Shown here piece after piece: positions 45,001-64,000 of a DNA stretch of 64,000 nucleotides (its first letter is position 1; each line of letters starts with the position of its first letter). The stretch spans positions 1 through 64,000 of the forward strand of contig JBEKYR010000023.1 of assembly GCA_049510745.1 (NCBI GenBank). Direction: 5' to 3'. The position numbers were made by a program. The DNA comes from Verrucomicrobiota bacterium (lineage in GTDB: Bacteria; Verrucomicrobiota; Verrucomicrobiia; Limisphaerales; Palsa-1400).

Positions 45001-48000
45001 CCGCCAATTCAGCCTCTGGCCTCTGACCGGCCAGGTCGTCTGCATCGCCATGCTCAACGCCGATAGTGGCCGGGGCAAAGTCCTCTTCCTGGCCGAGGAC
45101 GCGGAACCGGAGCGCGACTGGCCCGCGGCGGTGGAATTTCTCCCCTGCGCCGATGAAGGCGAACTGCTGGTCGAGTTTTGGGAAGTGGCCCTGCATTACG
45201 ACTCCATCGTCACTTTCAACGGCCGCGCCTTCGACGTGCCCTTTCTCTATTTGCGCTCCGCCATTCTCCAAGTCGCCGTTTCGCGCAAGGATTGGCTCGG
45301 TTACCGCTTCCAAATCGAGCCGCATTGCGATTTGCTCGAACAATTGACCTTCTACGGCATCAGCGGACGCGATGGCGCGGCGCGCCGCTTTAACCTGGAT
45401 TTTTACTGCAAAGCCTTCGGCATCCCCTCCCCCAAGAGCCAGGGCATCACCGGCATGGATGTCACCCGCCTGGCGAGCGAAGGCCGGGGGCGCGAGATCG
45501 CCACCTATTGTTTGGGCGACGTGCAGGCCACCGTCGAGCTTTATCGGATTTGGAAAGAACGGCTCGCTTCCATCAAATGACTCCCGCCTATGGCGCTGTA
45601 TAACAAAGGATACGGGCCGGTCGGACGGCTGGCCAAACCGCCCGTCGATCTGCTGCTCTGCTTTGCCGTCAAGGAGGAGATGAAGTTCTTCCGCGACCCC
45701 TCCCGCGAGGCCGCCGGCATCCAGGTCTGGGTCACAGGCATCGGACGCAGAAACGCCGCCGACAATATCCGCGAAGCCCTGGCCAAGGCCCGCCCCGAGC
45801 GGGTCATCACCGCCGGGTTCGCCGGCGGCCTCAACCCCGCCCTCAAACTGGCCACCGTCGTCTATGAAGAGGATTTCGACGCCGGTTTCGGCCGCGATCT
45901 GGAGGAACTGGGCGCCGTCCCGGCACGCTTTTACTGCCACCGCCGCGTCGCCATCACCGCCGCCGAAAAACGCGCCCTCTGGCTGGACACCGGGGCCGAT
46001 GCTGTCGAAATGGAATCCTCCGTCATCCGCACCATCTGCCGCGAATTCAAGGTCCCCAGCACCACCATCCGCGTCATCTCCGACGACGCCGCCCAGGACC
46101 TGCCGCTGGATTTCAACGCCCTCATGACCTCCGAGGACCGCATCAATTATCTCAAGCTCCTCTGGGCCGTGTTCAGCCGCCCCAGCCGCATCTCCAAACT
46201 CGTCCAATTCCAGCATCAGACCCTTGACGCCGCGCGCAGGCTCGGCGCCGTCCTGGAAGATTTACTCCGGGCGGAGCGATGTTGAACTGGCCGCCGGCGC
46301 CGCCGCCCGCTGTTCCTTGGCGTGCTCGCTGTAACTGATCAAGAGCGCCCCCAGCGCGATCAGCACCACCCCCGTCCAGCGCCCCGCCGATACCTTCTCC
46401 CGCAGAATAAACTCCGCCGCCAAAGTCGTGACGATAAAACCCAGCGAGGTCAGCGGCCAAATAAAACTCACGTCCCGCACCTTGAGCATGTAGAGCAGCG
46501 CCCCAAAAAAGACCGCCTCCAGACCCACCCCAAGCAGGATTTTCCCGTTGGTCGCCCCGCTCCTGAGCACGCGCGCGATTTCGCTCACCGTGATCTCCCG
46601 CGCCCCCTGGATTTCCTTCAGCCCCCCGCCGAGAAAGGCGACGCCAACCGATTCGATGATGGCGGCGATGACAAGTATAAGAAATATTTTGGCCATGATT
46701 ACAAATCCTGGTAGCGGATCAACTGGATGCCCAACTCTTGCGCCAGATTCCGGATGGCCGGATTGGTCAGGGCATCAAACTCGTTTCTAAATTGGTCGAG
46801 CGACGGATGCGAGTAAAGCTCCAAATTTCCCCCCGGCAGGCGCCGCAGCAATTTCTCCACATACGCCCCGTCCACCCGCCCGTTTTGCAACAGCCCGAAG
46901 ACCGCCTCCGTGTGCCGGACCCCTTTCCGCGCCAGCCGCGGCCGCGCCCAACCCGACAGCAGCCCGAAAACCAGCGCGTGGCTCACCCGGTAGCCCCATT
47001 GACCCGAAGCCAGCCGCGCGTTCAGGAAAAACCGGTCGCGCGTCAAGCGCATCGCCCCGATCCCCCACCTCTCCGCGTTTTCGAGCAGGATTTGCAGCAC
47101 AACCGGATGCAAATGCATGTTCAGATGCCCGTTGACGTGGTCCAACTTCAGTCCGGCGGCCCGGAATTTCGCGAACTGCTCCTCCATCTCCGCCCGCAAC
47201 TCCTGCCGGCACTGCGAGCGGAAAAAATACCGCCAGCCCGCGCCGACGGGATGCTCCGAAAAGCGCCCTTGCGGCCCGGCCAGATTTGGAATTTGCTCCG
47301 GCGGCAACGCCGCCCTTCCGCACACCAGCGCCAAATGCAATCCCACCCCCAGTCTCGGATTTTCCCGCGCCAGCCGGACCGCCTCGCCGGCGGCCGTCTC
47401 ATTGACCATCAAACTGGCGCTGGTCAAAATCCCCTCCCGATGCGCGCGAACCACCGCCTCGTTAATGGATGGCGACCGCCCAAAATCATCGGCGTTGACA
47501 ATCAATCGGCGTGGCGCGGCCTTTTCGCTCATGCGGCGCCGCAAACTCTTGACCTTCCGCCGCAACCGGTCAAGCCGCGACTGTTCACCGGAATCTCCCC
47601 TCCATTCTACCGCCCGCCCCGGTTGTTGGCCACTTGCTGGCGAAGCTCTTCGACTTGTCGCTCCAGATCGCTCACGTCTCGCTTTTGCGCCGCCGAGGCG
47701 TGAATGTCCGCGGCCAACCCAATGAACTCGTTCATCAAATCGCGCAATTCCTGCGCGTTGTCTTGTCCGCCCTGGAAATGGCGGCGGCCGGCGTCCAGGG
47801 CGGCCCGTGCGCTGTCAATGTCGATGCCCATCTCGGTTCCCGGCGCATTGGCCCAAGCAGGTTGCGCGTCCGTGTCGCGGACCTGCTCTCGCTGTTGCGG
47901 CGCGGCGGTGCCGGTCTCGCTGGTTCGGCGAAACTTCTGGCGCCGAACATTCTCCAGTGCCGCCGATTTTTCCCTTTCAACATTGATATTGCCCGGGAGT

Positions 48001-63000: not shown

Positions 63001-64000
63001 TCGCCCAGGCCGCGTCCCGCGCCAGAAAAATTCCCGACTCCTCCTTTTGCACGCTCGCCCCCACTGCCGCCCGGCCCTGGCCCGGCTCCGTTGCCCGGCT
63101 CCCCGTGGCCAGATCGATCCCCCGGTAACACTTGGCGTAAAGCCGGTTCACGTGCTCCACCAGCGGCTCGAACGGCAACGCGCTCTTCGCCGGCGTCTCC
63201 AGGAATTTCAGCGTCACCCCGCGGTTGTGCAGCACCACCCCGTCGTTGGCCATCCGCTCCAACGCCTCCCGCGCCTCCTCCCACGCCGGATCGTTCCTTT
63301 GCGCGTCCGTTATCCCCTCCAGAAATCCGCTCCCGTACCGGCTGCAAAACACCATCCAGTCGCGCAAGGGAAAGTTTTTCAGGACATAGGCCATGCTCAA
63401 CGGCCTCATCCAGCCGCTTCCCACGCACGTGAGCCATTCCCCTTGGAGACAAGGCTGGCCGTAAACGTCAAATATATGTTGAAGATAACCCAGGTAGCCC
63501 CGCCGGCTCTCAAAAAACCACACCGGCGTGTGCCGCAATTCCGCCGTCGCTTCCCGCGCCGCCCCGTTGTCTATCCGCAGCAGAATCTCATGCACGCTGT
63601 AATAATACGAATGGGCGCTGGCCATCTGATGAAGCAATTCGCTCACCCCGCCCGCCACGTCCTGGTCCAGCGCCCGCGTCACCCGCAGGTTCCGGTAAAA
63701 ATAGCTCAGCGCCGCCGCGTGCTCGTCCCCTTCCGCGCTGCCGTCGGATACGATCTTCCAGTCCAGCCCGGCCAGGTCCCCCGCCCGCTTGTCCGCGTTG
63801 ACCGCCAACTCCCCGTCCCGCTCCATCATGATCTCCCATATCTTCCCGATCACCCTCAGCTCCCCGATCCGAAACGCGTTCAGGTTCGCCGCCACCCACT
63901 TCGTGTTCAATTCCGGCATCGGGCTGTAGCGCAGCCGGATCGCCCACTCGATCCGCGCCTGATTAAACTGGGACTGCCCGGTCGGGTTCATTTTTCCCCC

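Follow-up and report, generated by a model that had tools for sequence, protein, structure and literature searches.

The 64,000-nucleotide window analyzed here (contig JBEKYR010000023.1, positions 1 to 64,000) comes from a Verrucomicrobiota genome, designated G000, and carries a phage head-tail module belonging to an element that, in the clade g1/g6/g9/g10, is distributed among four loci totaling about 25 kb (g-numbers denote genera, and G0nn and L09n denote other genomes and viral contigs). On balance, this element is probably a viriform resembling gene transfer agents (GTAs) and derived from a transposable phage, and we infer that its product would be a GTA. Its loci in G000 are as follows.

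47607-63991 of the window, (-) strand: locus A, head-tail module
C10:72735-77119: locus B, lysis and packaging operon (two lipoproteins, lipase, membrane coiled-coil protein, gp26-like protein, TerS, TerL)
C3:208678-211105: locus C, repressor/MuB remnant/Gam cassette
C9:127471-128871: locus D, XRE repressor/twin-HTH switch

Every locus is flanked by host genes on both sides, and since the four lie on four contigs and sum to about 25 kb, one DNA fragment would not hold them. GTA viriforms, in the accessible text of their definition (PMC9662315), have particle proteins derived from Caudoviricetes, are fully endogenized, often at several loci, are inherited mostly vertically and diversify along with the host, have heads too small to package all of their own genes, and carry mostly random host DNA that is delivered to other cells. 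The genomic side of full endogenization is seen here in the four host-flanked loci and the lack of a transposase, and the particle proteins are of Caudoviricete derivation (Portal_Mu, Mu-like_Pro, and Gp36 families, HK97 fold, and siphophage tube fold).

The module itself stands where the preliminary description had placed it, on the (-) strand; however, gene calling gave 19 ORFs, not 21 genes. Host genes border it: YdjC-like and EamA genes to the left and, to the right, a multiheme cytochrome-like ORF. Sequencing depth of the module equaled that of the flank in 4 of 4 runs, and the left junction was bridged by one contig. Each of 18 module proteins queried had one full-length copy in G000. 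Neither a terminase nor a transposase was found within 47607-63991, and a scan for sigma-70 promoters and terminators across the module gave chance-level results. The genes are listed below in their order from the portal.

62492..63991 (-): portal, Mu gp29 family, 499 aa (PF06074, Portal_Mu, E 4e-42; phrog_113)
61318..62481 (-): Mu gpI-like prohead protease/scaffold, 387 aa (PF10123, Mu-like_Pro, E 5e-8; phrog_328)
61057..61287 (-): conserved head-region protein, 76 aa (identity 60-76% in module genomes, 42-63% in phage relatives)
60471..60989 (-): conserved, syntenic 172-aa protein in the usual decoration-protein slot, by position only
59380..60438 (-): major capsid protein, HK97 fold, 352 aa (structure model and Foldseek)
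58756..59322 (-): Thr/Asn-rich protein, 188 aa, signal-peptide-like N terminus (identity 41-59%, 9 module genomes)
58153..58599 (-): head-tail adaptor, Mu gp36 family (PF07030, Phage_Mu_Gp36, E 1.5e-5; phrog_195)
57437..58156 (-): protein in the tail terminator slot, by position and conservation, 239 aa, C-terminal Fn3-associated domain (PF13287, E 5e-10)
56344..57276 (-): tail tube protein, siphophage (T5 pb6/p140-like) type (structure model and Foldseek)
56104..56310 (-): 68-aa ORF (gene calls and synteny)
54778..56026 (-): two genes in the distal-tail/baseplate slot, 154 and 214 aa (identity 62-73%, 9 module genomes)
52293..54776 (-): Thr/Asn-rich fiber or receptor-binding protein, 827 aa, variable past the N terminus
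49542..52193 (-): gene in the baseplate-hub slot, three ORFs (302, 345, and 151 aa); one ~800-aa ORF in most relatives
48381..49393 (-): Cys-rich 265-aa and 72-aa ORFs at the tail end; relatives hold a similar pair
47607..48356 (-): shortened tape-measure-like protein, 249 aa (33% identity to 508-aa and 537-aa proteins)

The portal is 460 to 530 aa long in module genomes compared to 611 to 838 aa in phage and prophage relatives, and two genes that lie downstream of the gp36 adaptor in most phage relatives examined are missing from the G000 module. The HK97 fold reported earlier for the capsid was recovered with a new model (mean pLDDT 58), which matched HK97-type capsids, including 3bjq, at Foldseek E values of 5e-9 and below. 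Profile searches gave no family match for the 172-aa protein. The 188-aa Thr/Asn-rich protein, which has no counterpart in G013, is possibly a head spike or fiber. The tube model (pLDDT 80) had Foldseek E values of 2e-9 to 5e-9, and the tube is of the noncontractile type; no sheath gene was recognized in the module. ESM Atlas leads comprised tube-like clusters and HTH_17. The 68-aa ORF may fill the tail chaperone slot. Distant versions stand in for the two distal-tail genes in G024 and G025, and the 827-aa fiber protein aligns across genomes only over its first ~100 residues. The 508-aa and 537-aa proteins related to the short tape measure belong to a transposable prophage and a satellite-like element, and the latter protein matched the tape-measure family phrog_1272 weakly (E 0.013). 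The modules of G007, G028, G029, and G030 yielded no call for a tape-measure gene, so some module copies may make no tail.

The three-way cut of the hub gene was traced to inserted repeats.

48379..62756 (strand not assigned): hairpin repeat arm, 35 of the 133 copies in G000; 29 lie between ORFs and occupy 10 of the 18 gene junctions

None of these repeats was found in the module regions of 11 relatives. In the hub gene, each insert brings a stop and a new ATG with zero residues lost, and G010 and G029 share the first of its break points. The cut that had been raised earlier as a caveat is real, with the same letters in independent sequencing runs and samples, but it entails no loss of residues, and decay was rejected as its explanation.

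Within the family, which consists of peat and soil Verrucomicrobia, capsid matches were found in 11 of 30 other genomes and four genera, with 83 to 92% identity in 10 genomes and 68% in G024, and TerL was absent beside the portal in 10 of the 11 (G024 is contiguous); these counts agree with those given before. The tube, by comparison, was found in 20 of 30 genomes, since in sister genera the same tail is combined with other heads. Where 17 genomes had been listed as lacking a portal match, many genomes without this portal do keep the same tail, with another head. Where 13 viral contigs with relatives had been listed, a one-protein query found 7 with capsids at 63 to 65% identity, and L090, the sole viral contig with a tube match, has gene calls identical to those of the G017 module.

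Inheritance of the element was mostly vertical, with tail, head, and regulators congruent with the host and TerL as the exception. Measured against one host marker, rpoB, in 7 genera, the distal-tail tree shared 9 of 11 splits, including all 7 with support of at least 90, the neck-tube tree shared 9 of 13, and the head tree shared 4 of 8 (permutation p ≤ 5e-4). A branch with support of 100 separated the split-module heads from 7 phage or prophage heads and G024. The dN/dS values were 0.04 to 0.28 for portal, protease, capsid, and tube among 11 genomes, and for the capsid they were 0.04 to 0.10 against 10 genomes and 0.24 against G024, all with saturated synonymous sites. The pS values were 0.41 to 0.78 for most module genes, 0.42 to 0.71 for rpoB, and 0.58 to 0.74 against phage TerLs. 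Synonymous divergence was therefore rejected as a clock, and the earlier argument that module dS resembles that of recA carries no information. No bias to cheap amino acids of the GTA type was seen, there being no consistent direction over four proteins. A stop in the G013 capsid was not counted as a defect since it lies upstream of the true start.

Several observations count against the GTA reading. The TerL tree is incongruent with that of the host (2 of 10 splits shared; Mantel p 0.07), the two types of TerS are distributed across genus boundaries, module flanks differ between most genera, and the tube had no match in 10 of 30 genomes. Decay is under way in G025, where the capsid gene is frameshifted, the tube gene has a stop, TerS has been lost, and the lipase is broken; the G029 capsid has a 1-base insertion, and G026 keeps only the repressor.

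In 9 of 10 split-module genomes, a close TerL was located on a contig other than that of the module, which bears out the unlinked terminase of the preliminary description, and none was found in G013. Its ATPase and nuclease motifs are intact in all 8 genomes where no contig end interrupts the gene; a TE in place of DE in Walker B was discounted as a sign of inactivation, as the phage TerLs L091, L092, and L094 share it. However, the single TerL described for G000 was an undercount. The genome holds four full genes (4 of 4 intact, no stops) and one fragment, and the three extra genes stand behind copies of the element's own promoters. The nearest isolated relatives of this TerL are B3-like transposable phages (29 to 34% identity). 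A close Gam was found in 4 module genomes, as had been cautioned.

Locus D, a fixed switch, is the fourth locus and was newly found here. An orthologue is present in each of the other 10 split-module genomes (E ≤ 3e-25); the locus adjoins ilvE in 8 of 11 genomes from three genera, and its tree recovers g6, g10, and g1. Based on this co-occurrence, its twin-HTH protein is a candidate master activator. No match to the Mor/C late activator family (PF08765) was found in G000, and three MuA queries against this genome (94% complete) gave a best E value of 0.38; a transposase is present in the relatives L091, L093, and G030:C4.

Two promoter sites were noted on this contig.

Dyad at contig position 64101, just outside the window: late-type promoter of the portal, sequence read by eye
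279..361 (-), close to the contig end: stray early promoter copy carrying two repressor-type operators; no phage gene was called after it

The promoter common to the portal and packaging operons is a phage late promoter. An intact transposable prophage has the same layout of dyad, 19 nt, and extended -10 upstream of its lysis genes, a site located by reading upstream regions; a strict dyad pattern search of phage loci gave no convincing site. By eye, a 20-codon leader ORF follows the portal promoter, its stop overlapping the portal start. With dyads placed by eye, portal and packaging promoters were 71% alike within a genome compared to 48% between genomes, and a genome's own pair was best in 8 of 9 cases (p 1e-5). 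The motif had been described as shared by the two operons, which holds, but it is not private to them, as 20 exact and 25 to 26 near copies were found. In four genomes, a variant specific to each was counted 78, 20, 15, and 14 times. The stray early copy is 79.5% identical over 83 bases to the repressor/early switch on C3. Repeats of 480 bp showed no target-site duplication or terminal repeat by eye, and a coding role was not convincing (pN/pS of 0.77 in the ATG frame versus 0.90 in the others, 16 copies). It is conceivable, if rather doubtful, that cassettes formed by a copy of one of the element's promoters together with a TerL, a TerS-like gene, or a cut-down TerS-like remnant, at up to 78 sites, are the particle's own genomic parasites or helpers. 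If packaging began at or near them upon firing of the circuit, they would steer which chromosomal regions are transferred. This would explain why packaging genes and promoters are multiplied and structural genes are all single. Dispersed heritable start sites would then give the cassettes a transmission drive, replacing random packaging.

Domestication, vertical inheritance, multi-locus layout, and co-regulation all find support, stronger than in the preliminary description, in the congruent trees over 7 genera, the fixed switch locus, and the joint variation of promoters inside genomes. A scenario that fits the GTA-like reading can be outlined. A transposable (Mu/B3-like) siphophage would have lost its transposase in the ancestor of this Limisphaerales family, the host keeping the phage, which in the clade g1/g6/g9/g10 would have been split over loci A to D. 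When repression is lifted at locus D, the twin-HTH protein would activate the dyad promoters of loci A and B, and the cell would assemble HK97 heads with a short noncontractile tail. TerL would fill the heads by headful packaging; the cargo would presumably be host DNA, since the element is incapable of excision or replication. Lysis of the cell would follow. The extra TerL and TerS copies and promoter-headed repeats would fire with the same circuit. Such a cycle would be the working mode of a GTA.

The particle could instead be owned by the host for purposes other than gene transfer, serving as empty or DNA-poor decoys, a tailocin-like weapon, or programmed lysis, with the terminase as an accessory. 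We consider this unlikely. It draws on genus g79, where 3 of 4 genomes carry a related module at a common site and head and tail are kept with the terminase not found in 3 of 4 (G000-type TerL in 0 of 4, PF03237 in 1 of 4, none in the single-contig G323), and on g144, whose modules lack an adjacent TerL in 2 of 2 cases. As G323 shows, DNA packaging cannot be concluded from the retention of such a module alone. The tail is also the most stably inherited part, heads having been swapped at least twice, and the fibers are hypervariable. However, the split clade has kept portal, protease, capsid, and a motif-intact TerL together, one promoter type serves both portal and TerL, and the extra TerL copies of G000 are all free of stops.

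A grounded prophage, helper dependent or slowly decaying and retained for immunity or used by coresident prophages or satellites, is quite improbable in our view. Intact transposable relatives do occur in the same genomes (G030:C4), as do satellite-like elements in G028 and G029 (both with a long tape-measure homologue and a MuB-like gene, that of G028 also with a capsid), and the decay in G025, the loss in G026, and a module filled with repeats would fit. Against this, four unlinked loci are retained jointly in at least three genera with synonymous sites saturated, the repeats insert at junctions or domain boundaries and spare reading frames, and unlinked operons show joint changes in their promoters. 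A third possibility, that related active phages integrated recently and independently, with their terminases parted by assembly breaks, is very improbable and largely refuted. The differing flanks, the mosaic TerL, and the low dN/dS that active phages also show agree with this idea; the host genes on both sides of all G000 loci, the missing transposase, the congruent trees, the flat depth, and the gene calls that L090 shares with the G017 module speak against it.

In the published descriptions available, RcGTA has five loci (PMC5026251), a 49-nm tail with a tape measure of about 216 residues by the segments described (PMC7296036), and a TerL grouping near P22-like phages (PMC7947584); alphaproteobacterial GTAs of the RcGTA/CcGTA type are inherited vertically (PMC9662315) and are controlled by a repressor above an activator above the cluster, with RogA and GafYZ (PMC9632790; 10.1101/2023.11.12.565669). 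The element resembles them in its short-tail head-tail cluster, further loci elsewhere, vertical inheritance, short tape measure, and putative repressor-activator layout. Unlike in RcGTA, the portal, protease, and adaptor are of Mu families, TerL is nearest to B3-like phages and lies outside the head-tail cluster, the terminase genes and late promoter are multiplied, and the phylum is different; judged by TerL kinship and these descriptions, membership in Rhodogtaviriformidae is unlikely. The Faecalibacterium FpGTA, in the text available to us (PMC12946183), also has separate conserved operons (10.5 and 5.5 kb), is genus-wide, and was first found from genomes and viromes; it differs in having particle evidence and in keeping TerL with portal and capsid. 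The words "mu-like" and "transposable" are absent from the main text of that paper. The order lysis-gp26-TerS-TerL-portal-protease-capsid-gp36-tail, Gam, and a MuB-like AAA protein are shared with Mu, B3, L091, L093, and G030:C4. MuC-type late promoters, as described in the part of the source available, are activator dependent and combine a dyad with a -10 while lacking a -35 (PMC12867686); the element's late promoter has the same parts, with a dyad that departs from the MuC consensus. A transposable prophage was rejected, since neither MuA nor Mor/C was found in G000 (94% complete) and there is no contiguous early and late genome; MuB is a 131- to 211-aa remnant, the portal extension and two neck genes are lost, and the tape measure is cut or absent. 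An F-type tailocin was ruled out by the intact portal, protease, capsid, and TerL, and an encapsulin was ruled out by the capsid's place in a portal-protease-neck-tail operon.

Producers named in the accessible text of GTA reviews are alphaproteobacteria, a spirochete, a sulfate reducer, and a methanogen, to which a recent paper adds gut Bacillota. No GTA from Verrucomicrobiota or from a transposable phage was found in searches of the open-access literature, where supplementary prophage or GTA catalogues could hold these loci. The family offers a near-complete series, from intact transposable prophage through contiguous transposase-less element, four-locus split, head swaps, and terminase-less form to decay. 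With a candidate master activator, its repressor, and a putative binding site named, induction is directly testable, and the multiplied promoters and terminases make a sharp virome prediction on how random GTA packaging is and who benefits from it.

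The head-tail module in the window belongs to an inherited, transposase-less phage element that is spread over four loci of the studied genome (G000), with late promoters that vary together and packaging genes that are intact. Gene calling in the window (G000:C23:1-64000) gave 19 ORFs for the module, from 63991 down to 47607, in the following order.

63991 (module start), minus strand: portal (PF06074)
after the portal, minus strand: protease (PF10123)
then, minus strand: two small head proteins
then, minus strand: capsid
then, minus strand: Thr/Asn-rich protein
after the Thr/Asn-rich protein, minus strand: gp36 adaptor (PF07030)
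then, minus strand: terminator-slot protein
then, minus strand: tube
then, minus strand: distal genes
then, minus strand: 827-aa fibre
then, minus strand: hub-slot gene, in three pieces
then, minus strand: two Cys-rich ORFs
down to 47607, minus strand: 249-aa final gene

The decoration and hub labels are presumed, given from position or the look of the sequence without a family match. The capsid gave a weak predicted model (pLDDT 58), which nevertheless matched HK97-type shells, and the tube a good one (pLDDT 80) matching T5-type siphophage tube proteins. The module has the GC content of the genome (0.604 compared to 0.603) and the read depth of the host flank (four runs, none of them a flagged candidate source), and its left junction with the host was bridged by one contig in the read data. 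The window DNA was found in peat and wetland metagenome runs, and named records with the capsid were mostly Verrucomicrobia MAGs, one of them labelled Limisphaerales. A genome-specific hairpin repeat sits at the gene junctions from 48379 to 62756, many copies stopping right at the following start codon; 35 of the 133 arms in the genome lie inside the module, a density about 120-fold higher than elsewhere in G000. The repeat also occurs in frame within the tail of the portal and the N-terminus of the fibre.

The preliminary description held that the structural and packaging operons have a common promoter motif, and this was borne out. Both the portal and the packaging operon (contig C10) are preceded by an 11-base dyad, 19 bases, and an extended -10, with the ATG about 10 bases on. 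The dyad sequence varies between genomes and agrees within each. Over 60 bases, with dyads placed by eye, portal and packaging promoters were 71% identical within a genome compared to 48% between genomes, and a genome's own pair was the best match in eight of nine genomes. An identical layout stands before the lysis genes in an intact prophage (G030:C4), and a variant form is found in the g4, g8, and g79 elements, which identifies it as the late promoter of the phage. The late promoters of Mu, as described in the excerpt of PMC12867686, are similar in having a -10 and no -35, with a bipartite activator site. No Mor/C protein was found in G000; from its co-occurrence, a twin-HTH protein encoded on contig C9 is a candidate activator.

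This C9 switch, a further locus beyond those described earlier, came to light in a profile search based on a small phage protein of the early region. The candidate activator, encoded at C9:127471-127944, has 157 aa and HTH_17-like domains, and its gene is divergent to that of a 282-aa repressor. The activator candidate has an orthologue in all 10 other genomes whose module lacks an adjacent TerL (split-module genomes), and in 8 of the 11 genomes, from three genera, the switch adjoins what we take to be ilvE (like gp26-like and TerS-like, a label from position or sequence unless a family match is given). The repressor is also present in G026, which has lost the module. Nine of the 10 other split-module genomes yielded the packaging operon on a separate contig, and the two types of TerS and its neighbour gene do not follow genus boundaries. 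The repressor/Gam cassette (C3), with a divergent promoter flanked by twin operators, has a close version in four module genomes. Small HTH genes lie between the tube and the next gene in g10 genomes (L023, L025, L027, and L034) and at L079:19181-19411 in G007 (weak Sigma70_r4 match, E 3e-4); with their location within the tail operon or following the twin-HTH gene, they are possible second-tier regulators.

The capsid was found in 11 of the 30 other family genomes and the tube in 20 (18 of these matching by at least 53%), as well as in 13 of 388 genomes sampled from other families of the order; the tube is commoner because heads were swapped. In genus g4, for example, the element is contiguous (~21 kb) and comprises a repressor, lysis genes, TerS, TerL, a different Mu-type head, and the same tail; it adjoins a presumed scpB (from position or sequence) in all three genomes fetched whole. 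G017 and G022 (g8) have a common site other than that of g4 and an HK97/lambda-type head, also found in G009. No integrase or transposase was called in the g4, G017, G022, or G009 elements.

Synonymous divergence, offered in the preliminary description as evidence of inheritance, proved uninformative: module genes have low dN/dS, and the saturation of synonymous sites extends even to comparisons with phages. The descent argument therefore rests on trees and shared sites. The distal-tail tree had 9 of 11 splits in common with the rpoB tree, including all seven with support of at least 90, compared to 9 of 13 for neck-tube, 4 of 8 for head, and 2 of 10 for TerL (G027, having no rpoB, was excluded). 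Strongly supported conflicts numbered one each for head, neck-tube, and TerL. The branch parting split-module heads from those of G024, a contiguous version, and seven phages or prophages had support of 100. Module flanks are only partly common, with what we take from position or sequence to be nadD-rsfS in G011, G012, and G023 and one gene in G027, G028, and G029.

Unlike the single-copy structural genes, TerL and TerS are multiplied. The four full TerL genes of G000 are 61 to 67% identical and have intact motifs. The genome also has five TerS-like genes of full length, not counting the C10 TerS. The three extra TerLs each follow a promoter copy: that on C8 the late promoter, that on C22 the early promoter, and that on C70 a C9-like promoter; extra TerS-TerL pairs of G005, G006, and G007 lie behind g4 late-promoter copies, read by eye. 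One degenerate late-promoter pattern, run over 31 genomes, gave 78 matches in G023, 20 in G000, 15 in G011, and 14 in G012, compared to 0 to 4 in the remaining 27, as in the reversed control; among the matches listed, most have their own genome's dyad. The G000 copies are all intergenic, and most head a 480-bp repeat originating in the end portion of a TerS-like gene; over 16 copies of this repeat, the promoter part is 93.5% conserved compared to 84% for the body. Among the regions fetched, 20 of the 78 sites in G023 and 19 in G011/G012, copies run into repeat mosaics or host genes, and one leads to a TerS-like gene. Spreading intergenic repeats are abundant in these genomes, so the promoter copies may merely ride the same traffic. 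A stray early promoter with operators at 279-361 of the window, near the contig end, is nearly identical to the copy before the C22 TerL. Promoter-headed repeats at C5:161154, C24:21630, C64:3835, C1:53166, and C51:27185 adjoin putative restriction-modification or toxin-antitoxin genes, judged by their sequence.

The capsid occurs at 63 to 65% in seven viral contigs. In these and related prophages the portal is 611 to 838 aa, gp36 is usually followed by two further genes, and a tape-measure-slot protein, where seen, has 310 to 598 aa. Transposase is present in relatives L091 and L093 and in prophage G030:C4, the last two also having MuB; with these three transposases as queries none was found in G000 (best E 0.38), which still has a 205-aa AAA remnant at C3. 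The element is not an active Mu-like prophage. G030:C4 (L245-L246, L266), a transposable prophage of ~34 kb, apparently intact and with a related tail, is the best model of the ancestor. The final window gene is 33% identical to a 508-aa protein of this prophage. The G024 homologue has 301 aa and those of g6 and g9 ~190 to 250 aa; gene calling gave none for the modules of G007, G028, G029, and G030. The position of the window gene and a weak match of one homologue (E 0.013) suggest a tape-measure protein. The lysis slot of L002 and its relatives holds a class 3 lipase (PF01764), lost in G028 and broken in G025; in other phage relatives this slot is taken by a small enzyme-like gene of another kind.

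Some elements depart from this pattern. That of G025 is decaying, the G029 capsid has a 1-base insertion (possibly a sequencing error), and G013 gave no TerL match. Genus g79, of another family, keeps a related module with a g4-type capsid (L247-L252 and L270; G323, G205, G160, and G361); no terminase was found adjacent to it, or anywhere in three of the four genomes, one being a single contig. A separate Gam cassette lies ~8 kb from the module in three g79 genomes. A third head-tail module, with a fused protease-capsid and no adjacent terminase, occupies one common site in g144 (L275-L276; G307 and G401). Satellite-like elements at L376:2887-12379 (G028:C79) and L377:8663-17858 (G029:C3) each have an HTH gene, an 816- to 890-aa protein, a MuB-like gene, and a 537- to 555-aa tape-measure homologue; that of G028 also has an HK97 capsid and no tube. 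The modules of both hosts are without a tape-measure gene.

On present evidence the element probably does not belong to the RcGTA family. Three of the six GTA-defining features in the excerpt of PMC9662315 were found in it, and we lean slightly toward the view that it works like a GTA. The C9 switch would activate heads, short tails, terminase, and lysis genes, and host DNA would be packaged by headful, a mode in which TerS picks the start sites (excerpt of PMC7947584).
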